Below are positions 2,633 through 22,773 of a stretch of DNA of 24,000 nt, piece after piece. Numbering within the stretch: position 1 is the first letter of the stretch; each line of letters starts with the position of its first letter. The notes under the pieces were generated by a model. That model was not told the DNA's origin, ran no database searches, and saw nothing but the letters and a program-made list of their open reading frames with translations. The DNA is from Methanothermococcus thermolithotrophicus DSM 2095 (GTDB taxonomy: Archaea > AGJL01 > Methanococci > Methanococcales > Methanococcaceae): contig NZ_OX296583.1 of NCBI RefSeq assembly GCF_946463545.1, forward strand, positions 757,035-781,034, written 5' to 3'. A program made the position numbers and the translations under genes.

Positions 2633-3455
2633 TTAAAATCCCCTTTTTGTAAGGTACAGGTATGTACTGTACAGAAGGCCTCTGATTCACAGGTTGTTTG
2701 TAGAGGTCGAATAAATCATAAACCTTTTGAGGTACGTCGGTATTTATCTTAATTCCCATTTCCTTTAATTTTTTAACGGTTAGTGGATAGTCATGAGTCC
2801 ATTTTCCACTTGAAAGTATTTTAGCCAGTTCCCATGCCTTTTCATCATCATCCAGTTTATCCTTCAAGAGCTCATAGACAAACTCGGTAACTTGATTTAT
2901 GGCCTTTTTAGATATATCTGCTAAAATCAAAGTTTCATCATCCAGCTCATCTACATATTTTGTATTTACAGTATTTAAAATGGAAGCTGCAGGATATTGA
3001 CCTATTTGTGGATCCACAGGACCCATTACCGCATTTTTATCCATTATTATTTCATCTGCAGCAAGTGCAATTAAGCTACCCCCACTCATTGCATAATGAG
3101 GTATTATTGCAGTGGTTTTTGCCTTATGTTCCTTTAAAGCCATTGCTATTTGTTCGCTGGCTAAAACTAATCCCCCCGGTGTGTGGAGTATTATATCAAT
3201 AGGCATATCTTCAGGAGTCAGCCTAATGGCCCTTAAAATCTCTTCACTATCTTCAATATTTATGAAACGATACAGTGGTATGCCAAATAGGGCCAACTGT
3301 TCCTGCCTATGTATTAATGCAATCACTCTTGTTTTTCTTTCACTCTCTAAATTCTTTATAAATTTGTATCTTTGTAATAATTTCCACCTAAACATTATCT
3401 GCGGATAGACAAACAGGAATAAGAAGAATATCCAAAAAAGACCTGATGGATCCAT
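2610..3455 (-). CDS. Membrane-anchored ClpP-fold serine protease (SDH / serine dehydrogenase proteinase-like family)
   Basis: 281 aa with a hydrophobic N-terminal segment (LFWIFFLFLFVYPQIMF). The core IDIILHTPGGLVLASEQIA...IIPHYAMSGGSLIALAADEI is typical of ClpP/crotonase-fold S49/SDH peptidases. A GGGTG SD lies upstream of the ATG. Confidence 0.7.
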   Translation of the reverse strand: MDPSGLFWIFFLFLFVYPQIMFRWKLLQRYKFIKNLESERKTRVIALIHRQEQLALFGIPLYRFINIEDSEEILRAIRLTPEDMPIDIILHTPGGLVLASEQIAMALKEHKAKTTAIIPHYAMSGGSLIALAADEIIMDKNAVMGPVDPQIGQYPAASILNTVNTKYVDELDDETLILADISKKAINQVTEFVYELLKDKLDDDEKAWELAKILSSGKWTHDYPLTVKKLKEMGIKINTDVPQKVYDLFDLYKQPVNQRPSVQYIPVPYKKGILNANDKNR

Positions 3456-4853: not shown

Positions 4854-7800
4854 TTATTTAAAGAAATCATCAATTTTAACTTGTTTTCTTTTATCATTTT
4901 TAAATAAACTGTCGATACCGTCTTTAATTAAGTCCAATCTCTGTTTTATATAATTGCTCGCATTGTACCTTTCTGCCATAGTTTGAGAAACTTCCATATA
5001 TTTTTCTACAGCTCCTTTTGAAACCGTTAGTATTAACTTACTTCCGCACTTCTTACAAACTCCTTTTAATGGTATTCTCCTGTACTTTGCCCCGCATTTA
5101 CATCTGACACTCTGTCTTGAAAATGCCCTTAGATTACCGATTAGATCTGGGACAAAGTGGGATTGAATAACCTTTTCTGCAACGTCTCTTTCATTTGTAG
5201 CCCTTATTTTTTTTGCTACATTCAACTGGGCACTGGTTTTTTCAAGCATGGATCCTAAAGTCTTATATGCACAAACTAATGGTCCCTCATCTATTCTCGA
5301 AGTTTCGTGAGTATAGCCGATACCTTCATATTGGGAAGGCTTACCCAATCTGTCCTCTATAGTTTGAATTAATTCCTTTACCTCTTTTGGAGAAACCATT
5401 TCAATGGTCTTTTCATAAAACTCAAGTGGGTACTCCCACACCGAATCCATGTTGTGAACTTCACCATCGACTTCCTTTGGATCAAGTATTGTTGTTAATA
5501 CCAGTGGAGCATCCATCTGTCCCCCTCTTTTATCTGGGAGGAATTTTTTAGAGAAGTTCAGAAATGCGTCTAACAGTAGAAAGAAGGCGTCCTCATCGCC
5601 GTCGCAATTTCTCCTCTTAGATGCGTGGAAATAAGGATGTGCATAACCTACATTGGCTTTACTATAACCCACTATTCTTCCAACCATTCCTGCCGAGGTG
5701 TGAGGTGCCATACCTATAACTAAATGCCCTATCAAGTCTTCCTCATTGGTTACGTTGTAGAATCTCTCTCTTCCATAGTATTTTTCAAGTAGATCATCTA
5801 TGAACTTAGCTACATTTACGAAGTATTTGGCACACTTCTCAGGGATTATCACATCCTGAGGTTTTAACTCTAAAACTTGCTCCCCATCTTCAAGAGGAGC
5901 TCCATGAATATCCTTAGTATATCCTAACCCTATTAATTTATCAATACTTGCATTAATTTCATTAGGTCTAAAATGTGTAACTGGGACATCGGTGCAGTCA
6001 AATCTTGTTGTACCATCCTTAAACACATATATATTATTCATTGCCCTTAATATCGCCTTTTCTAATGGTTCAACTACTTTTTCTTTTGAGGTCATACCTT
6101 TGATACATTTAACATCCCCAGGTTTGTTTATACCCAAGTTTTCTAAGGTTTTATACCAGTAGTCTTTCAAAGGTATGGTTATACGTGATGGCCCAGTTAA
6201 ATTCACAGGAGCTCCACAGAATGGACATTTTCTATAAAGGCTTATTCTTTCACAGCGTGGACATTTACCATAGGAAACTTCCACATCGTCAGTTTTTCCT
6301 TCTTCAACAGCTTTATTTATCAATCTAACTTGACTTCCAGCGTTGCCTATTGGAAATAAACCATTAACTGGTGGTTTCATTTTTCTTTCTGCTGCCTTTT
6401 CAGGTCTTCCCATACGAGCTCCAACATAAACGTAGGTGTTTCTTTTTATCTCAAAAGGTGCCAACAAATTTATAAAATGCATGCTGTTCTTTGCTCTTGA
6501 ATGGGCCTCGCCTATATCTTCAACTAAATCTATATTATTTTCAACGTCATAGCCAAGTGAGTAAAGAAGCGTATAGTATTCCTCGACTTCAACGGTCTTG
6601 GTTTCTCCATTAACTTTATGACAACAACCAATTAATTCTAAAATCCTTTTAGCATTTTTATGAGCTTCATTTTTAACATCGTAAGGAATTATCCAAGTAT
6701 TACTCCTTTCATCGTAGTTTCCACTTAATACCCAATCCCTAAGTTGAAGTACATCATCCTTTGAAACATCGTGCCAACGATACGTATATTTTGGATGCAA
6801 AGGTGTTTTTGTTTTTAAGGCATAATTTACGGCGTCTTTTGGGGTTGGGTTGTTTATAAACTCTTTTTCATAAGGTATGTTTTTTGAAATTAGAATTTTT
6901 TCATACCATTCTTCACACCAACTACTTGGAAGTAATGGGTGGTTGTTCTCCAAAAAATCTCCAAAGTTAACTAATATATCCCCTAAAAACAATATTTCCT
7001 CTACTAAATTTCTATACTCCAGGGCTTTCTCAATGGTATCTATTTTAATTACACTTCCATTTTTTAATTTAACTATGGGGGGCTCTATACTATCTACTGG
7101 AACTACACAAGTTGCTTTTCCAGGTCTTTCAGTTTTTAACTGAGTTCCCACAGCCATGAAATCATCTACAAGATACATGAGCGCAGGGTGAAATCCATCC
7201 GTTGCAAATCCTGTGTTTCTACTTCTTCCATACCTTAATCTAAATCCTCCCTTTTTTGAAGGATGTGCGAAAACAGGCCTTCCCGCAATAACCTCCCCTA
7301 TAAATTTGGTTATTGCCTCAATTTCAATATCATCGTAATCCGATGAACCATCATCTTCATATACATATTCCTCCTCATTTTCTTCCTCTTCTTTTTTTTC
7401 AAAATCAACTTCTTCTTTTTTATTTTTTAATTCCTTTAACCAGTCCCATCCTTCTATTCCTAACTTATCAACATGTCTTAAGATTTTTGGAGCCTTTAAA
7501 AGTACCCCTTCTACTAATGCAAGTAGAGCTCCACCCCTTATTTGGTTGGTTTCTACCCTATCCAAATCTCTGTGACCACTAACTTCAACGTCATCAGTGG
7601 CTTCTCCAGTAATTTCAACTGAGATATTTTTAACTGCAGCCCTTATTTCCTCAGCTTTTGGGGAATACTGGAAGCTCCCAACCTCTGATTGATAGAGATC
7701 GACTTCTTCAACATATCTTTCTATCTCATCCTCAGTGGGAATGTACCTATTCAAACCCATGTTTTTTCTAACATAGTCCCCTACCAAAACCGCCAAAGCC

Positions 7801-8264
7801 TGAGCTGTACCTCCTGCACTTCTAATAGGGCCTGCAAAATATATTGCCAAGTATTCACTACCATCTTTATTTTTCTTTATTTTAACATGGGCTATACCTT
7901 CAAGTGGAGCTGCTACAATTCCCTCAGTAATAACTGCTAGTGCTGTTCTTATGGCTTGTTCAGCTGCCATCTCCCTATCAAAATTTCCAAATCTTCCTTC
8001 AACAATTTCTTTGGCAATTTCTAATGCTGCAGGCTCCTTACCAAGTTCTGAAACTAACTCTCTAATTCTCTCTGCTACGCCGTCAGGCCCCACAATACCC
8101 TCTACCCTATCAGCCATATCTTTTGCCAAAGGTATTTCCACACTTTCAGCTACATCAAAACCTTTGTTTCTACACTCCTCGGCAATTTTGTAAATTTTTT
8201 TGACATCTGTTAAAATGTGATTAAAATATTCTTCCATATCTTTTGAACACGCAACGTGAAACAT
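4854..8264 (-). CDS. polC: DNA polymerase II (PolD) large subunit DP2
   Basis: 1136-aa ORF with the characteristic DP2 N-terminus (MFHVACS...YF..I...V..IY.IAEECR..G.D) and Cys clusters ([17 protein letters not shown]; [20 protein letters not shown]). An AGGTGA SD lies upstream. The length is consistent with an intein-free protein. Confidence 0.95.
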
Positions 8265-8425: not shown

Positions 8426-8670
8426 GGCATGAGGGCTATAGCCCGCCTTCTGTAATTTCGGCGACATTCAGCTAAGCGCTAATGCTTGCACCCGTGCAGA
8501 ATGGGGCCGTTTCACCGATTCCTTAAAACTCCTCAATTTTCGGATATCATCGTCATCTGTTTTAAGGCCGTGTCGTTTCTATGCCCCATTCAATCCCTCT
8601 CGGGATTGTTGCACATAATGGGTGGGCGGAGCTTCCTCCCAATTGGATAGTCACCAGCCCTCTTGCCTGT
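8424..8670 (-). ncRNA. rnpB: RNase P RNA (compact, Methanococcales type-M-like)
   Basis: The minus strand contains GGGAGGAAGCUCCGCCCACCC (CR-I-like) and ACAGAAGGCGGGCUAUAGCCC (CR-V ACAGAA..GGC). A P1 helix forms between GGCAAGAGGGC (8657-8667) and GCCCUCAUGCC (8426-8436). The segment is GC-rich relative to its flanks and is ~245 nt long. Confidence 0.75.
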
Positions 8671-8691
8671 TGGATTGTATAAATTAAAATT

Positions 8692-8716
8692 CCATATAAC
8701 ACTCGAAAATTCGAAA
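8692..8716 (-). promoter_or_regulatory. RNase P RNA promoter: TATA (TTATAT, 8694-8699) preceded by the 14-nt box TTTCGAATTTTCGA
   Basis: The TATA centre is ~28 nt upstream of the inferred RNase P RNA 5' end. The box at 8703-8716 is identical to the one at 21431-21444. Confidence 0.55.
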
Positions 8717-8725
8717 GTAGATTGT

Positions 8726-8735
8726 AAAAATAAAA
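8726..8735 (-). terminator. Oligo-T terminator (TTTTATTTTT) after 5S rRNA
   Basis: The T-run lies directly 3' of the 5S rRNA on the minus strand. Confidence 0.6.
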
Positions 8736-8737
8736 GT

Positions 8738-8854
8738 GGCTAACGGCGTCACCCTGTTCCCACCAGATGGCAGTACTTAGGGTATCGCTGGAGGGCTTAA
8801 TTTCCGAGATCGGGACGGGATCGGATGTGGCCCCTCCGCTATGACCGTTATGCC
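8738..8854 (-). rRNA. rrf: 5S rRNA
   Basis: The minus strand reads GGCAUAACGGUCAUAGCGGAGGGGCCACAUCCGAUCCCGUCCCGAUCUCGGAAAUUAAGCCCUCCAGCGAUACC...GGGAACAGGGUGACGCCGUUAGCC, which is an archaeal 5S pattern. Ends are +/-3 nt. Confidence 0.9.
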
Positions 8855-8894
8855 AGAGAATAAAAAGTGCATAAGCCCCTTGTGTCTTTAAGTG

Positions 8895-11890
<2,996 letters not shown>

Positions 11891-11979
11891 ATATCACCAG
11901 ACACAGGGGCTTATGCACGACCTTCACTCTAAAATCCAGTCCTTCATCCATAACCTTGCGATTATGGATTGCACCTACA

Positions 11980-12052
<73 letters not shown>

Positions 12053-12104
12053 ATTATTCCTTTAAGCCCACAATCATTTGGTGCCTAGTAACGACCTTTT
12101 TTTC

Positions 12105-13575
<1,471 letters not shown>

Positions 13576-16371: not shown

Positions 16372-16617
16372 TAAGGACTCTCATTATACAACGTACTCAT
16401 AGTTTCAACAAAATAACAGCCCACTACAAAATTAGCTAAGGAATAACTCTAGAATCCACCAACAACAACTTTTTTAATTAATTTTTATTTTCATTAAAAT
16501 TTAAACATTTAACAACATTCCCGCTCCTGCCCATATCACATATAAAATACATCATATAGATAATGTAACAGACATAATTATAATACCAACAACATATAAT
16601 AATAGTTCGTGATACCA

Positions 16618-18636
16618 ATGAACGAAGGTAAAATTGAGGAACTAAAACACTTAATAACCAACTATTTAAGAAATTTTCATAGTGACGACATTATTTCAGA
16701 AAATGAGAAGGTAGTTGTAGATTTAAAGAATATTTACGACTATGGGATTATAGAATTTGTAGAATTAATACATGAAAGACCAAAATTAGGATTGGAAATA
16801 TTAAAAGAATGTTACGACAATGCATACTATACCCTAAAAAACGAAACACCAAACTGTGAAATTTCCATAAAAAACTTGCCTACAATATTCAACAAATCAG
16901 GGAAAAACAAGACAATTACTATAGAAAATATAAAAAGCAATACTTTAGGAAAACTAGTTGAATTTGAAGGCGTAGTGGTTACAGCAACAAAAATAAAATC
17001 TGCATTAAAAAAAGGAGTCTATATATGCGGTTCTTGTGGGGAAAAAACAGTTATTGAAGTTGAAAATCCATTTGAGGCTTCATTTGATCCATCCTGTAAA
17101 AAATGTGGCGGTGGAAATTTAGTACTAATTGAAGAGGAATCGGAGTTCATAGACTTTCAAGAAATAAAAGTCCAACAGCCATTAGATTTGATGGACGATC
17201 CCGAAGAACCTCCAAAGTACATAACTGTTTTTCTAACAAACTCTCCAGGAATATTCTGTGGACGTGTAAAAATAATGGGGATACCTATTAAAAACCAGAA
17301 AAATAGAAAAGTACCAATTTATGACATATATATCAAAGGACTGTATTGTGAAGTCATAGAAAACAAAATAGAAACCAGATTAAGTGAAGAAGACATTGAA
17401 AACATAGAAAAAGTAGCTAAAAATCCAAAAATTATAGATATACTGTCAGATCGACTCATTCCTGAAATAAAAGGATATAATATGGTTAAAAAGGCTATAT
17501 TCTTACAACAAATAAAAGGTGTTGAAAAAGGGAATAAAAGAGCAGACAGTCACATACTTCTAATTACCGACCCGGGAATTGGAAAGACTGTCATGTTAAG
17601 AAGGATTGCAGAATTACCCGGAAATCTCTATGGTTCTGTGACGACAGCTTCAGGCGTTGGATTAACTGCAGCAGTTATAAGAGAAAAAACAGAAATTGGA
17701 GATGACACCTGGGTCATAAAGCCAGGTTTACTTGTAAAGGCAAATAAAGGTACTGCATGTATTGACGAGCTCACTGTGAATAGAGACCTTCAAAGTTTTG
17801 TATTGGAGGCAATGGAAAGTCAAACAATACACATAAGTAAAGGAGGAATAAACGCCAAATTACCATCCAAATGTGCAATACTTGCGGCATGCAACCCACG
17901 ATGGGGAAGATTTGACCCCAATGTATCCGTTGCAGAGCAAATAAATATCCCTGCGCCTATGTTGAGTAGATTTGACTTAATATTTCCAATTAGGGATGAA
18001 GCTGATAGATCAAAAGATAAAGATATTGCAGAGCACATAATAAACGTCCATAGAGCTCTATTAAACAATGAAATTGATCAGATAGGTTTAGAATACATTG
18101 AACTAGACGGCGTTAAAATTGATAAAGATTTTATAATAAAATATATATCCTACGCAAGACAGAAAGAACCTATAATATCAAAAGATGCTGAAAAGGTTTT
18201 AATAGACTACTACTTGAGTATGAGGAAAGGTGCTGTTCAAATAACTGCAAGACAGTTAGAAGCAGCAATAAGGCTCGCCGAAGCTCATGCAAAGGCCAAA
18301 TTAAAGGACGTTGTTGATGAAGAAGATGCCAGAGAAGCTATAACTATAATCACAGAATCATTAAAAGAAATTGCCTATGACCCTGAAACTGGGCAATTTG
18401 ACATTGATAAAATAGCAGGTATCTCCAAAAAAGACAGAAATAAAATGACTCATATTTATGATATTATTAAAAAACTTGCAGAAAAGAATGAAGATGGTCT
18501 AGTAATATATGAAGATATTGTTGAAGAGGCCAAATCAGAAAACATAGATGAAGAAGAAGTGGAAAATATACTTAAAAAAATGGTCAAATATGGAGATATT
18601 GACGAGCCTAAAACTGGAAAATATAGGCTCATTTAA
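16618..18636 (+). CDS. mcm: MCM replicative helicase paralog (divergent)
   Basis: The zinc finger is CGSCGEK...CKKCGG. The AAA+ core includes ITDPGIGKTVML, ACIDELTVN, IHISKGGINAKLPSKCAILAACNP, SRFDLIF and ITARQLEAAIRLAEAHAKA. The tracked ORF starts at a GTG (16609), and the first ATG is at 16618. Confidence 0.9.
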   Translation: MNEGKIEELKHLITNYLRNFHSDDIISENEKVVVDLKNIYDYGIIEFVELIHERPKLGLEILKECYDNAYYTLKNETPNCEISIKNLPTIFNKSGKNKTITIENIKSNTLGKLVEFEGVVVTATKIKSALKKGVYICGSCGEKTVIEVENPFEASFDPSCKKCGGGNLVLIEEESEFIDFQEIKVQQPLDLMDDPEEPPKYITVFLTNSPGIFCGRVKIMGIPIKNQKNRKVPIYDIYIKGLYCEVIENKIETRLSEEDIENIEKVAKNPKIIDILSDRLIPEIKGYNMVKKAIFLQQIKGVEKGNKRADSHILLITDPGIGKTVMLRRIAELPGNLYGSVTTASGVGLTAAVIREKTEIGDDTWVIKPGLLVKANKGTACIDELTVNRDLQSFVLEAMESQTIHISKGGINAKLPSKCAILAACNPRWGRFDPNVSVAEQINIPAPMLSRFDLIFPIRDEADRSKDKDIAEHIINVHRALLNNEIDQIGLEYIELDGVKIDKDFIIKYISYARQKEPIISKDAEKVLIDYYLSMRKGAVQITARQLEAAIRLAEAHAKAKLKDVVDEEDAREAITIITESLKEIAYDPETGQFDIDKIAGISKKDRNKMTHIYDIIKKLAEKNEDGLVIYEDIVEEAKSENIDEEEVENILKKMVKYGDIDEPKTGKYRLI

Positions 18637-18736: not shown

Positions 18737-19843
18737 ATGAACATGATATACAATGTGGCAGAAGATTTTTTAACTGGAGATATATGGATACTACCTACGG
18801 ACAGGGATAACCTACTAGAACTAAATGAAAATGGATGTATTAAACTAGTCAGGAATATACCTGTTTTAAGGATTTTAGCCACACCATCTATAAAAAAAAC
18901 AGTTAGTAGGTTAGCATATACAATAAAGGATAAAATGACAATGTTTAAAGGAGAAACATCAGGATGGATGAAAAATTTAATTAACTACCTCCATAAAACA
19001 TACTTCGACAAAAAGAGCAACAATTACTATAAGGCAAAAAAGGCATGGTATAGATTTATAGGAGATTTATTTAAAAATATTAGAGATTGGGAGTTTAACA
19101 AAGTAAGAGGTAAAATAATCGCACTTTTGAGAATTTTAAACCCAGTACTTGTATTCGATATCCACAATACAACAAAGTGGAATTATACTACAAGTTTTGT
19201 TAAATTCATCAAAGAATTGAAAAAAAACAATATAACCGTCGTACTAAGGTGTCCGTTCGAATCTATGGACCATGTTAAAGAACTGTTTAAAGAATCCAGA
19301 ATAAACAATATTGCAACAATTAAATACTACGGAAAAACACTCGGTCATACCATATCAGCAAAAGTTGCAAAATATTTAATCGAAATTTCGAATGGTAATT
19401 TGGATGTTATTAGATTGATACTGAAACATTCAAAAAGGGAGCTGAAATCATTGCGGGAGTTAAGGATACATTGGTTAAAAATAATACCTGAGATTGTTCC
19501 TAAAAAATATAGAAAAATTATGAAATTAGCCTGTAAACTGAAAAAATTCAATATAAAAAATATAGGCAATTATTTAAACTTCAGTTTATCCACAACCTAC
19601 AACTATATGAATGAATTGGTTGAACTGGGCCTGTTAACTAAGAGGAAAGTTAGAAAAAACGTACTATTTAAAATAAGAATTGATAAGGATTCCTTGTTGA
19701 ACGTAATAGGGAAATATAACCCCAACAACTTGCATGAGATTTTTTTAATAAATAGCAAATGTAGTAAATATGTCCAAAAAAATACGTTTTTAAAGAAAAA
19801 AGGGTTTTCTACTTTTCGAACTAAGTGTGATTATATAGAATAA
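18737..19843 (+). CDS. Hypothetical protein: apparent degenerate AAA+ (Orc1/Cdc6- or archaeal-ATPase-like) core plus C-terminal winged helix
   Basis: 368 aa. A P-loop-like but non-canonical ATPSIKKT sits at residues ~47-54, and a Walker-B-like PVLVFDIHN at ~136-144. ISNGNLDVIRLILKHS resembles a sensor-2/lid helix. The C-terminal wH reads NIKNIGNYLNFSLSTTYNYMNELVELGLLTKRKVRKNVLFKI. Confidence 0.55.
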   Translation: MNMIYNVAEDFLTGDIWILPTDRDNLLELNENGCIKLVRNIPVLRILATPSIKKTVSRLAYTIKDKMTMFKGETSGWMKNLINYLHKTYFDKKSNNYYKAKKAWYRFIGDLFKNIRDWEFNKVRGKIIALLRILNPVLVFDIHNTTKWNYTTSFVKFIKELKKNNITVVLRCPFESMDHVKELFKESRINNIATIKYYGKTLGHTISAKVAKYLIEISNGNLDVIRLILKHSKRELKSLRELRIHWLKIIPEIVPKKYRKIMKLACKLKKFNIKNIGNYLNFSLSTTYNYMNELVELGLLTKRKVRKNVLFKIRIDKDSLLNVIGKYNPNNLHEIFLINSKCSKYVQKNTFLKKKGFSTFRTKCDYIE

Positions 19844-19969
19844 TACAAAATATACAATACATAATATCAAATATGTTGAGTGTAATGTTGTGACACAGCC
19901 TTATTTTTCGAATACTACTTATGATTCATATTATAAGAAAATTATTTTGCTATTTTTTAACTTATACGA

Positions 19970-20019
19970 TTTCGAGTTTTCGAGTGTAGTGTATGTATAG
20001 AATTTTGGAAGGTATCCCC
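19970..20019 (+). repeat. Left arm of an imperfect ~50-bp inverted repeat (starts with the box TTTCGAGTTTTCGA)
   Basis: It aligns without gaps to the reverse complement of 20291-20341 at about 39 of 50 positions (hand count). Shared blocks are TTTCGRGTTTTCGA, TGTATGTATA, TTTTG.AA and GTATCC. Confidence 0.8.
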
Positions 20020-20290
20020 ATTTAGGTTTTACAAAAATTATTCCAAACGTATTCTATATGTTATTACTATTTTGATCTATAAATGTATAATATGTATAAA
20101 TAATAAACAATATGTTATAATATACACTATAGTGTGATTATACTACTAAAAACGATGTAAACAATCAATACTAATCTAGAGAAACATGTTTAATTATCAT
20201 TAAACATATTTAACAAGATGATAACTACTATGTGGTAAATACTGGATAAATTACTCTCTGTTATAATCAAAAATGCATTTTTTATTTATT

Positions 20291-20341
20291 GGTGGATACA
20301 TTTCAAAACCATATACATACATCACGTTCGAAAACCCGAAA
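20291..20341 (-). repeat. Right arm of the inverted repeat (reverse complement starts TTTCGGGTTTTCGA)
   Basis: See the left arm. The arm ends 6 nt from the stop codon of the wHTH gene at 20347. Confidence 0.8.
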
Positions 20342-20346
20342 TACTA

Positions 20347-20865: not shown

Positions 20866-21169
20866 CAAATCACCTTTTTTTAGTTATTGGGTGCTCTTTG
20901 ACTAAGATCTAATGAATATCTAATTTTTTAAACGAATATTTATCTTTAGGGTTTTTGATTCATATAACGTTTTTCGTCCAATACTAATTTACTAATAATT
21001 TTGATAGTATATATGTCTTTTTATTTGATAGTTTTTTGTTTAAAGCCAATAATTTGGATATGTTGAAAAATGTAGGGGGTATATCCGTTGTTTTAATTTT
21101 CTTATATGATACTTGATTAACTTTCAATTTTTAATATTTTATTCAAAGTTATTTTACGTTTTATGGTTA

Positions 21170-21181
21170 TATTCACAATAT
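21170..21181 (+). repeat. Partial third copy (TATTCACAATAT) of the 16-nt direct repeat
   Basis: This is a 12-nt exact match to the core of the repeats at 21322 and 21352. Confidence 0.5.
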
Positions 21182-21321
21182 ATTTTTTAGTATATAAGTA
21201 AAAAATACAATTAAAGAAAAATTTATTAAATAAGAATAATTATATATACTTTTTCTTTTTTATTAAAATAAATTTTAATTGAATTTTGAGAGTCATTTGG
21301 CTTTGTATTGTTTATATAATT

Positions 21322-21367
21322 TTTTATTCACAATATTTTTGCTATTTTATGTTTTATTCACAATATT
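21322..21367 (+). repeat. Two perfect 16-nt direct repeats, TTTTATTCACAATATT, with 30-bp phasing
   Basis: The copies lie at 21322-21337 and 21352-21367, within the 680-bp non-coding spacer upstream of the Orc1/Cdc6-like gene. Confidence 0.8.
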
Positions 21368-21430
21368 ATTGCATAGTAAATAATTTATATAGTTATATCT
21401 ATAAATATTTTTAGATGTTAAATTTTAGAT

Positions 21431-21458
21431 TTTCGAATTTTCGAAAAGTATAAAAAAG
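21431..21458 (+). promoter_or_regulatory. Box TTTCGAATTTTCGA followed by the TATA-like GTATAAAAAAG: probable promoter of the Orc1/Cdc6-like gene
   Basis: The 14-mer and its close spacing to a TATA (about 3-4 nt) match the inferred RNase P RNA promoter. It lies ~90-115 nt upstream of the ATG at 21547. Confidence 0.5.
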
Positions 21459-21489
21459 TTGATAATGCAATTATCTAATTATTATTTTA

Positions 21490-21510
21490 AAATTTTCAAA
21501 TTGAAAATTT
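21490..21510. promoter_or_regulatory. Perfect 21-bp palindrome AAATTTTCAA-A-TTGAAAATTT
   Basis: The arms are 10 bp each and the centre is at 21500. It sits between the putative TATA and the RBS (GGTGG at 21538-21542) of the Orc1/Cdc6-like gene. Confidence 0.55.
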
Positions 21511-21546
21511 GCACTAGGACGCTTCTTTTTAATTTATGGTGGTATT

Positions 21547-22773
21547 ATGTTGGACCCTATTGAATTTATATACAATTCATCATCTATAACAAGAAAAGCG
21601 ATGAATAGATTGAAACTAAAAACAAATCCTTTTTCGGAAAAACCTATTAGGGGAAATACTAAGTTTTTCGTAGGTAGAACTTCAGAGCTGAAAGAAATTG
21701 CCGACATATTGGGTGCAGCTCAGTATGGAAGTATAGCTAACGCTGCCATTGTAGGTACAAAAGGTATTGGTAAGAGCTCTATACTCAACATATTGTACTA
21801 TGCTGCAAAAAGAAAGGGTTATTGGGTAGTGGAGCTCGAGGCCTCGCAAGTTACTCCCAGGCAATTTTTAATCCAGTTAATGTATGGTATTATTAAGGAT
21901 AATTTATTTTCAATAGATGGTACTTTATCAACGGATTATATGGAACATTCCCAAAGAATTATTGAAATATATAGGCGACTGAACAACTATAGCGATAAAA
22001 CACCGGTTCACTATCCAAGGGAAAAAATAGAAAGGGATTTGGATTATCTATTGACAAATGTGAGGGAAGAAGGAAAGTTATGTATAATAACAATAGATGA
22101 GGCAGACCAATTTGCTAAAAAAAGCTGTCTAAGCCTTTTACAGTTCTTTCATTCATTCCTCTATGAAGATGGAATTTTAGTATTTTTTGCAGGTTCTCCT
22201 ACATTAATGGAGGGTTTAACAAAAGTATCTCCTGCAATGAAGGATAGAATACCTAAGGTAATAAACATGCCTCCACTCCTAAAAGAAGAAGCTTATGATT
22301 TAATTAAAAGACGATTGGAAGATGCTCACACAGTTAAAGCAGGAGATTATGAGCCATTTACCGATGCTGCAATTGATAAAATAGTTGAAGAGTGCGATGG
22401 AATCCCAAGAAAGATAATAATGACTTGTTCTGAGGCAATATCTATAGCTATGAAAAAAGGAATGGATAAAATAGATGAAGACATAGTTAGAATGGCAATG
22501 AAAAAACTAGGTATTAGTGTAGGTCATCAAATATTAAATCATTTAACACCTGCCCAATCTAAAATAGTTCAAGCACTTGCGGATTTGGGCGGCAGTTCAA
22601 CAGTAACTGAGTTAGCTAGAATTTTAAACAACTCTCCTGGAACTATTGGAACTCATTTATCGGATATTTATGAAATGGGGTATGTATATAAAGAAAGAGT
22701 GGGTAATAATGTATATTACTCATTATCAAAGGAACTAACAGAGGTTCTAATCAATGAAGATGAAGAAAATTAA
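21547..22773 (+). CDS. Divergent Orc1/Cdc6-like AAA+ ATPase with C-terminal winged helix
   Basis: The N-terminal motif is PFSEKPI....FVGRTSELKEIADIL. Walker A is GTKGIGKSS, Walker B is CIITIDEADQF, and the sensor-2-like motif is CDGIPRKII. The C-terminal wH reads SKIVQALADLGGSSTVTELARILNNSPGTIGTHLSDIYEMGYVYKERVGNNVYYSL. A GGTGG SD is present. Confidence 0.75.
   Translation: MLDPIEFIYNSSSITRKAMNRLKLKTNPFSEKPIRGNTKFFVGRTSELKEIADILGAAQYGSIANAAIVGTKGIGKSSILNILYYAAKRKGYWVVELEASQVTPRQFLIQLMYGIIKDNLFSIDGTLSTDYMEHSQRIIEIYRRLNNYSDKTPVHYPREKIERDLDYLLTNVREEGKLCIITIDEADQFAKKSCLSLLQFFHSFLYEDGILVFFAGSPTLMEGLTKVSPAMKDRIPKVINMPPLLKEEAYDLIKRRLEDAHTVKAGDYEPFTDAAIDKIVEECDGIPRKIIMTCSEAISIAMKKGMDKIDEDIVRMAMKKLGISVGHQILNHLTPAQSKIVQALADLGGSSTVTELARILNNSPGTIGTHLSDIYEMGYVYKERVGNNVYYSLSKELTEVLINEDEEN

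Follow-up and report, generated by a model that had tools for sequence, protein, structure and literature searches.

A 24,000-nucleotide stretch of DNA from Methanothermococcus thermolithotrophicus DSM 2095 (contig NZ_OX296583.1, positions 757,035 to 781,034), referred to here as the window, carries a gene cluster that includes the MCM helicase gene and the gene for a presumed replication initiator, Mc-pRIP. Between two convergent genes of this cluster, p368 and p173, lies a 372-bp element with two inward-facing arms around an AT-rich core. This element, the inverted-arm unit, is discussed below as a candidate module of the replication origin of the Methanococcales. The unit and its surroundings are as follows, in coordinates of the window.

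16609–18636 (+): MCM helicase gene (Pfam MCM, MCM_OB and MCM_lid, E 1e-74)
18737–19843 (+): p368, 368 aa, whose C-terminus forms an ArsR-like winged helix; the final codons coincide with a third copy of the box that heads the arms
19844–20346: intergenic region A (IGR-A), the 503-bp p368/p173 spacer, which houses the inverted-arm unit
19970–20341: inverted-arm unit, 372 bp
19970–20019 (+): left arm, composed of the box TTTCGAGTTTTCGA (19970–19983), a linker, the alternating pyrimidine-purine (YR) tract TGTATGTATA and the less conserved TTTTGGAAGGTATCC
20020–20291: core, 272 bp, 20% G+C, with the inner motif AAATTATTCCA at 20035–20045
20292–20341 (−): right arm, with its box TTTCGGGTTTTCGA running from 20341 to 20328, 5 nt past the p173 stop codon
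20347–20868 (−): p173, 173 aa, with an N-terminal ArsR-type winged helix and a C-terminal Cys/His cluster
20869–21546: IGR-B, 678 bp, 14–19% G+C, adjoining the Mc-pRIP gene
21547–22773 (+): Mc-pRIP (MJ0774 family), 408 aa, Pfam AAA_16, ATPase_2 and HTH_5
downstream of Mc-pRIP: GTP cyclohydrolase gene, MptA type

The left arm matches the reverse complement of the right arm at 39 of 50 positions without gaps. When the 503-bp spacer was shuffled (n = 200), the mean for the best 50-nt inverted match was 31.6 and the highest value 36, and none of the 200 shuffles reached 39. The box TTTCGRGTTTTCGA heads both arms without a mismatch, at 19970 (+) and 20328–20341 (−); if up to two mismatches are allowed, ten matches occur in the window against 0.48 expected. 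An earlier reading of the letters alone, referred to here as the sequence-only reading, had described inverted repeats of about 50 bp, and the figure of 39 in 50 is reproduced with the right arm starting at 20292, one base away from the 20291 it gave. The blocks it saw shared between the arms (TGTATGTATA, TTTTG.AA and GTATCC) are all found there. Its description of the core as AT-rich and free of open reading frames (ORFs) holds as well, since the 272 bp have a G+C fraction of 0.20 and the longest ORFs, at 21 to 36 aa, are not credible.

Two further features of the core were named in the same reading, a palindrome ACACTATAGTGT (20124–20135) and a hairpin ATGTTTAAT/TATC/ATTAAACAT (20186–20207). 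Both are present, but neither is conserved in relatives, and a perfect stem of at least 9 bp arises in 20 of 300 dinucleotide shuffles. For these reasons a functional palindrome or hairpin was rejected, and both are taken to be chance products of AT-rich sequence.

Comparison with related Methanococcales, which the sequence-only reading had proposed as a check, was made over 13 genomes from four named genera: three Methanothermococcus, Methanococcus aeolicus, M. maripaludis, M. voltae, Methanotorris igneus, four Methanocaldococcus (including Methanocaldococcus villosus), and two metagenome-assembled genomes. Facing (+) and (−) boxes occur in the same syntenic p368/p173 spacer of all 13, with the outer ends of the arms 360–389 bp apart. 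In the alignment of the unit, which comprises 12 genomes and 24 arms, this distance is 374±6 bp. The arm consensus is TTTCGaGTTTTCGAGTngcATGTATGTATA, and most of its positions are 70–100% conserved over the 24 arms. Conservation throughout the order is confined to the first 30–32 nt of an arm, and the full 50-nt similarity is specific to the window genome. The flanking proteins are less conserved than the arms, with identities of 35–58% for p368 and 23–75% for p173. From this distribution, the arm sequence is judged to be older than the divergence of the Methanococcales.

The geometry of the spacer is maintained along with the arms. IGR-A measures 457–620 bp, compared to 20–81 bp for the other convergent spacers of the same loci, and 11 of the 12 aligned genomes have the box of the right arm starting 1–5 nt beyond the stop codon of p173. 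The core measures 260–289 bp with 9–21% G+C, and its central 150 bp show no sequence conservation in the alignment. Inward of each arm, at about +70 and in mirror orientation, ATTATCACAA is found in most genera, and its left-arm copy forms a palindrome in Methanocaldococcus, approximately TGTGATnATCACA. Identity between arms is 0.84 within a genome and 0.76 between genomes. For example, Methanocaldococcus villosus has the lineage-specific variant CATATATGTATA in both arms. Such matching of variants within an arm pair fits a single reader protein for both.

The unit appears once per locus. Copy number was assessed over the fetched loci, viral contigs and a metagenome collection. Within this scope, one arm pair is present in each of the 13 genomes, at a constant syntenic position. 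The 30-nt arm pattern was not found among 2.9 million viral contigs, and all seven of its matches in the metagenome collection are from this locus. With respect to duplex stability, of all 100-bp windows in the 15-kb locus, the least stable falls in the core in 7 of 12 genomes and in IGR-B in 4 of 12, a profile that is indecisive as a means of choosing between the two spacers.

The order of genes around the unit is also common to the 13 genomes: p368, IGR-A, p173 (−), IGR-B, Mc-pRIP and MptA. Immediately upstream of p368, the genera Methanococcus, Methanothermococcus and Methanotorris have the MCM gene. The MCM of the window presumably corresponds to MMP0030 of M. maripaludis, judging from gene order and on the assumption that MptA is MMP0034; the p368 and p173 orthologues of that species are presumed to be MMP0031/MMP0032. 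MMP0030 is the single MCM of that species reported to be essential (PMC3984812). No mention of MMP0031–33 or MJ0772–73 was found in the searched literature.

Three ArsR-type winged-helix domains are encoded around the unit, at the C-terminus of Mc-pRIP, the N-terminus of p173 and the C-terminus of p368. Mc-pRIP is 72–83% identical in every Methanococcales genus and matches TIGR02928 (orc1/cdc6) at E 9e-10, which is below the family cut-off. By its profile matches, it is a divergent Cdc6/Orc1-like AAA+ protein with an ArsR-type helix-turn-helix (HTH), and a distant relative of Cdc6. The Methanococcales-specific p368 has orthologues at all loci and no Pfam match. Its C-terminus aligns with the winged HTH (wHTH) of Mc-pRIP in hhalign (E 3e-4, probability 40%), and its AlphaFold2 model (predicted local distance difference test score 81) has weak top matches in Foldseek (E ~1e-3) to Apaf-1, ORC subunits, RFC and many wHTH regulators. 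A winged helix is clear at the C-terminus of the model. Judging from this model, p368 may be a degenerate Orc-like protein without Walker motifs. The N-terminus of p173 matches ArsR/CzrA in a search of PDB profiles (E 1.7e-5), and its C-terminal WWC-x2-C-x4-C-x-H cluster, invariant in the alignment, is probably a zinc-binding module resembling a SWIM finger.

The second spacer, IGR-B, is as rigidly conserved as the inverted-arm unit (the same spacer is present in loci L006–L018 and L030), and carries its own set of repeats.

20958, 21141, 21171, 21326 and 21356: ATTCA(C/T) repeats, all in the same orientation, around a conserved central inverted repeat

Copies of the motif (T/G)ATTCA(C/T)(A/G)AT stand at about +94, +278, +309, +465 and +496 from the p173 start, and include two pairs with members 31 bp apart and 156 bp between the pairs. 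At least the four promoter-proximal positions are filled in every genome examined. The repeats flank a conserved block, AATAAACTTTATT..TATATATA..ATTAAAGTTTATT, and ATTATCACAA, the motif inward of the arms, is a half-site related to the published ATTCA repeat. Of note is that the copies found in IGR-B all point one way, unlike the ORB(−)/DUE/ORB(+) pattern (ORB, origin recognition box; DUE, duplex unwinding element) claimed for M. jannaschii.

This spacer is where origins have been predicted. The Methanococcales have been said to lack a recognizable Orc1/Cdc6 and a recognizable origin, with initiation described as an “intriguing unknown” (PMC3984812). In silico, DoriC and Ori-Finder place their origins in the spacer upstream of the Cdc6-like gene (PMC3531139, PMC4009838, PMC4164010), and work with Z-curve, DoriC 5.0, Ori-Finder 2 as well as Ori-Finder-Arch assigns a single oriC beside Mc-pRIP. 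The published ORB of the Methanococcaceae is TT[TA][GT]ATTCA[TC][GA]AT[AT]T[AT]T[AT] (PMC4164010, Table 1). In the window, with zero or one mismatch, it is confined to IGR-B, where it occurs at 21167, 21322 and 21352. The sequence-only reading held that origins of the order had never been mapped convincingly. This is correct as to experiment, since the searched literature contained only in silico predictions and no experimental mapping for any member of the Methanococcales, but those predictions do exist. No description of the box or the arm sequences in the context of an origin was found in the same literature.

Copies of the box are present outside the arms as well, and the more distant of these requires that the remainder of the window be introduced.

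4854–8264 (−): PolD DP2 gene, 11 kb from the unit
8427–13575 (−): genes for RNase P RNA, 5S rRNA, 23S rRNA, tRNA-Ala and 16S rRNA
between the rRNA genes and MCM: genes for a TrkA-type channel and a CobQ-like amidotransferase
8703–8716 (−): outlying box TTTCGAATTTTCGA, followed by GTGT and TATATGG, just past the terminator of 5S rRNA and 36 nt short of RNase P RNA
19806–19819 (+): third box TTTCTACTTTTCGA, with two mismatches, in left-arm orientation, 164 bp upstream of the left arm
19870–19908 (+): conserved block AAATATGTT..TGTGTAAnGTTGTGACACA plus a T-run (alignment columns about 150–205)
21431–21457 (+): initiator-gene promoter, composed of the box TTTCGAATTTTCGA, AAAG and TATAAAAAA; the arrangement is kept in the aligned genomes
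3310–3323 of locus L020 and 61–74 of locus L022: 5S-adjacent box at the same position in M. maripaludis and M. voltae

The third box is present in 9 of 13 genomes, where it overlaps the p368 stop codon; its distance upstream of the left arm is ~164 bp in eight of these and 129 bp in the ninth. A TATATA comes 4 nt after it in Methanocaldococcus and Methanotorris. Two additional copies just left of the unit had been listed earlier from the letters. That at 19813 (TTTTCGA within 19806–19819) recurs in relatives, but that at 19905 is not conserved. The C-terminal residues of p368, FRVFG and IRIFEFSK, are nothing more than the third box in translated form. The block at 19870–19908 (AAATATGTTT-TGTGTAnnGTTGTGACACAA and then the T-run), in the interval that separates this box from the left arm, holds the near-palindrome TTGTG-N-CACAA. 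Its CACAA half-site is common to the ATTCAC and ATCACA motifs. By its sequence, this block may be the terminator of p368 or a palindrome for binding of a (dimeric) protein.

The box of the Mc-pRIP promoter, 4 nt ahead of TATAAAAAA, has a recognizable copy in every aligned genome, with zero to three mismatches. The 5S-adjacent box lies ~10–18 nt beyond the T-run terminator of 5S rRNA in the window, M. maripaludis and M. voltae, and the gap between its end and the 5′ end of RNase P RNA varies in the same three (36, 22 and 117 nt, respectively). In the ~330 kb of Methanococcales DNA sampled, non-coding copies of the box are confined to the two spacers, including the Mc-pRIP promoter, and the post-5S site. 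It was on these grounds that the box was rejected as a general promoter element; the remaining matches in the ~330 kb are coding coincidences. For example, F-E-N-S-K is the peptide specified by the box when read as its reverse complement, with the result that perfect matches occur in an ATP-grasp gene of Methanocaldococcus and in p368 of Methanothermococcus and M. aeolicus (L008 9443–9475, L014 4772–4785 and L015 4538–4551). Scans for the motif must therefore mask coding sequence. A related match within a GATase gene by eye encodes L-E-I-P-K.

Two wider roles for the box were considered and set aside. In the window, RNase P RNA with its box is found immediately upstream of PolD DP2, which makes it tempting to view the box as a motif of a replication regulon there. 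The idea was rejected because RNase P and the box are both missing within 4 kb at the DP2 loci of M. jannaschii and Methanotorris igneus. Likewise, apparent matches upstream of MCM fall within the preceding gene, and the spacers upstream of MCM are without a box. As for DP2 itself, the window version is intein-free (1136 aa), and a 1620-aa version with a LAGLIDADG intein, 100% identical in the shared parts, occurs in public assemblies. The presence of the intein therefore varies among very close relatives, and DP2 inteins also vary across the Methanococcales. In Methanotorris igneus, CRISPR arrays (Rfam CRISPR-DR39) are located on either side of DP2 (L021 3153–3586 and 9187–9702), beside a Cas10/Cmr2 gene.

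Some of the motifs vary by lineage. The third box, ATTATCACAA and the TGTGACACA block are all absent from M. maripaludis and M. voltae, the same genomes in which p173 is most diverged (37% and 23% identity, respectively). The recognition helix of Mc-pRIP is near-invariant, and it is this helix that the invariant box and the ATTCAC repeats follow. This co-variation gives a weak hint as to the binders, in that the lineage-varying motifs might go with p173, and the invariant box and ATTCAC repeats with Mc-pRIP.

The reading preferred here, to which a probability of about one half is assigned, treats IGR-A and IGR-B as two parts of a single origin region, with the arms as binding sites for winged-helix proteins on either side of an unwinding region. 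The 372-bp unit would on this view act in cis, as one module of the region where chromosomal replication begins in the Methanococcales. Each arm, in its ~30 nt, would offer a tandem TTTCGAG/TTTTCGA box and then the alternating pyrimidine-purine tract ATGTATGTATA, and would be bound by at least one of the three locally encoded winged-helix proteins (Mc-pRIP, p173 and p368). Proteins bound in mirror image would bracket the ~270-bp, easily melted stretch, and it is there that the two strands would come apart and that the neighbouring MCM helicase would be loaded. Such a unit would follow ORB–DUE–ORB logic with a non-canonical recognition sequence and, together with IGR-B and its five ATTCAC repeats, would make up an origin in two parts, with the p173 gene between them. 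Since the box sits at the position of the element that transcription factor B recognizes (BRE) in the initiator promoter, its occupancy would also feed back on initiator expression, thereby coupling occupancy of the origin to transcription of the initiator.

Protein binding, unwinding, MCM loading and origin activity are what we infer from the anatomy of the unit, its conservation throughout the order, its single-copy status, its position among replication genes and its low duplex stability. The arrangement of inverted elements (39 of 50) around an AT-rich core, which is the least stable window in 7 of 12 loci, is the ORB–DUE–ORB layout. Some 1.2 kb, taken up by p173 and IGR-B, separate the unit from the Mc-pRIP gene, yet the unit is inside the conserved MCM–p368–p173–Mc-pRIP cluster. 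An origin-like layout had been proposed in the sequence-only reading. The layout itself proves to be conserved throughout the order with rigid spacing, but the arms are not ORBs and the unit is a second module beside the predicted oriC. In a more ambitious form, which is speculative and rather improbable, the arms would constitute a new class of origin recognition element made of tandem TTTCGAG heptads and a YR tract. This element would be unrelated to the ORB, read by an ArsR-type winged helix (of Mc-pRIP, p173 or p368), and also used in promoters where it overlaps the BRE. The unit would be the unwinding module of a two-part origin in which initiator occupancy, short inward transcription and duplex opening are coupled.

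A number of observations weigh against an origin function of the unit. The published Methanococcaceae ORB has no match in 19844–20346 at zero or one mismatch, and the universal ORB/mini-ORB, TCCA[CG]T[TG]GAAA[TC][GA]AAGGGGT, has none in the window at up to three mismatches. It is IGR-B, and not the inverted-arm unit, that adjoins the initiator gene, and IGR-B is equally or more AT-rich. In Methanocaldococcus indicus SL43, the Mc-pRIP gene (L013 5870–8218) lies 24 nt behind a 369-aa gene, by eye a NiFe-hydrogenase subunit, and no p368, p173, box or ATTCAC array was found within 7 kb on either side of it. Its Mc-pRIP gene thus lies apart from both spacers, from which it follows that the initiator gene and the cis elements are separable. 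Because the published repeat matches only IGR-B, and the arms match neither motif, the inverted-arm unit is regarded as a second, apparently undescribed module beside the predicted origin, and not as the sole origin candidate.

Other points against an origin favour transcription, and the alternative they suggest, although unlikely, is the strongest of those considered. The arms would be two convergent archaeal promoters, each a regulated box with a TATA module that would drive an inward transcript of ~40–50 nt ending at a T-run near +100; in a variant, the arms would be poised promoters bound by a regulator. Initiation would then take place elsewhere, and the unit would be a transcriptional control region of the replication cluster. 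The same box occurs in the initiator promoter and after 5S rRNA, which keeps this alternative alive. A box, 4 nt and TATA(A/T) form the conserved Mc-pRIP promoter, and the same combination recurs at the third box in two genera, Methanocaldococcus and Methanotorris. It is also found upstream of the window's RNase P RNA, whose promoter aligns with the arms over ~45 nt. Each arm resembles a promoter, with its box at the BRE position of a TATA-like YR tract (+19 to +32), ATTATCACAA is conserved at about +70, and a T5–7 run is found at +79 to +101 of the left arm (11 of 12) and at ~+100 of many right arms. The YR tract and the T5–7 runs would allow each arm to serve as a very small transcription unit, 40–50 nt in length. 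The post-5S box, present in three species, has no obvious link to an origin. Promoters had been offered as an alternative in the sequence-only reading, and the box/TATA combinations at Mc-pRIP and RNase P strengthen it, but there is nothing downstream of the arms to express: no ORF exceeds 36 aa, and no Rfam family or folding signal is found. A structured RNA at 80–90% A+T would also be implausible in thermophiles. The best TATA-like element of the arms, TATATGG, is 12 nt from the box as opposed to 4 nt in the clear promoters, and the CATGTATG present at 4–5 nt is poor. Moreover, the post-5S box keeps its distance to the 5S terminator and not to RNase P RNA, a poor fit to fixed promoter geometry, and convergent promoters provide no rationale for the conserved 374±6 bp spacing across the order. 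Origin and transcriptional functions are not mutually exclusive, and the two accounts are partly compatible, since inward transcripts could help to open an origin.

An appreciably less probable alternative is that IGR-B alone is the origin and the unit an origin-proximal organizing site, such as a centromere-like (partition) site or a chromatin boundary, bound by p173 and/or p368. IGR-B already has a repeat array and adjoins the initiator gene, partition sites typically adjoin origins and are made of repeated or inverted motifs, and the HTH domains of p173 and Mc-pRIP resemble the ArsR family, weakly including the pNOB8 centromere binder AspA. However, no gene for a ParA/SegA-like ATPase was seen in the cluster, the long AT-rich core of maintained length would be left without a role, and the box in the initiator promoter points to an initiation circuit rather than segregation. 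A structured non-coding RNA encoded by the core, with the arms as promoter and terminator context, is very improbable. The core length is maintained at 260–289 bp and the arm is similar to the promoter of RNase P, itself a stable RNA; but the core has no Rfam family even at E ≤ 1, its folding energy equals that of shuffles on both strands (z +0.5 and 0.0), its central 150 bp are not conserved, and its G+C content of 9–21% is at odds with the G+C-rich stable RNAs of these hosts. The prospect that the unit is a 372-bp mobile element resembling a miniature inverted-repeat transposable element (MITE), another of the earlier suggestions, is close to nil. Its imperfect terminal inverted repeats of ~50 nt (39 of 50) and non-coding interior are of the expected kind, but a single pair at a constant syntenic position in 13 genomes, with no dispersed copies in the viral and metagenome scans, led to rejection of this idea. 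No target-site duplication around the arms is obvious by eye (flanks ...ATACGA and TACTAT...). These last two, MITE and structured RNA, are together with all unlisted readings given only a small share of the probability.

The two-module origin preferred here can be compared with known systems. Like the unit, archaeal origins such as Sulfolobus oriC1, Pyrococcus oriC and Aeropyrum ori1 have long inverted elements that face an AT-rich stretch, are located in a replication-gene cluster near the initiator gene, are conserved among relatives, and include a copy of the recognition element within the initiator’s own promoter. In contrast, their consensus, TCCA[CG]T[TG]GAAA..GGGG, is unrelated to the TTTCGAG box and ATGTATGTATA. 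Inverted ORBs in archaeal origins are usually ~70–150 bp apart, and the arms of the unit are ~300 bp apart. The unit, known here from sequence alone, is also not directly beside the initiator gene, and where Cdc6 has its winged helix, the presumed initiator of the unit has an ArsR-type HTH. The oriC predicted by DoriC, Ori-Finder 2 as well as Ori-Finder-Arch shares with the unit its neighbourhood, its presumed initiator (MJ0774 family) and a conserved, AT-rich, repeat-bearing spacer. That oriC adjoins Mc-pRIP at 20869–21546 and has the ATTCA motif in one orientation, whereas the unit occupies the next spacer and has a different, inverted motif.

Bipartite origins are known in bacteria, including oriC1/oriC2 of Helicobacter pylori and the oriC of Bacillus subtilis, in which the modules flank dnaA. 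As in the present proposal, two repeat-bearing modules are split by a gene of the initiation circuit, and one of them has the unwinding region. These origins differ in belonging to another domain of life with other initiators, and the splitting gene here is p173, which encodes a small wHTH protein and not the initiator. A different kind of parallel is provided by the EarA-dependent fla promoter of M. maripaludis with its TACATA sites (PMC10665913). The arms resemble such promoters in that the box abuts a TATA-like tract at the BRE position, that the YR tract of the arm has TACATA on the opposite strand, and that a real gene, that of Mc-pRIP, is driven by this module. Unlike them, the arms face each other and have no downstream gene or structured RNA. 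One p173 orthologue matches Pfam EarA at E 0.22, which is not significant, and the EarA/TACATA resemblance is a lead only.

How replication starts in the Methanococcales is an acknowledged gap (PMC3984812), and later work has been done in silico, on one spacer and one repeat (PMC3531139, PMC4164010). The neighbouring spacer has a second, equally conserved element, with an inverted-repeat/unwinding layout and an unrelated recognition sequence. Origin-prediction tools limited to the initiator-adjacent spacer may therefore miss half of the structure. The 30-nt arm, the 14-nt box and the ATTCAC repeat can serve as short DNA probes and, with three candidate binders, make the question testable in M. 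maripaludis, which is genetically tractable and highly polyploid. If the proposal is true, there would be a two-part origin in an order long said to be without a recognizable Orc1/Cdc6 and a mapped origin.

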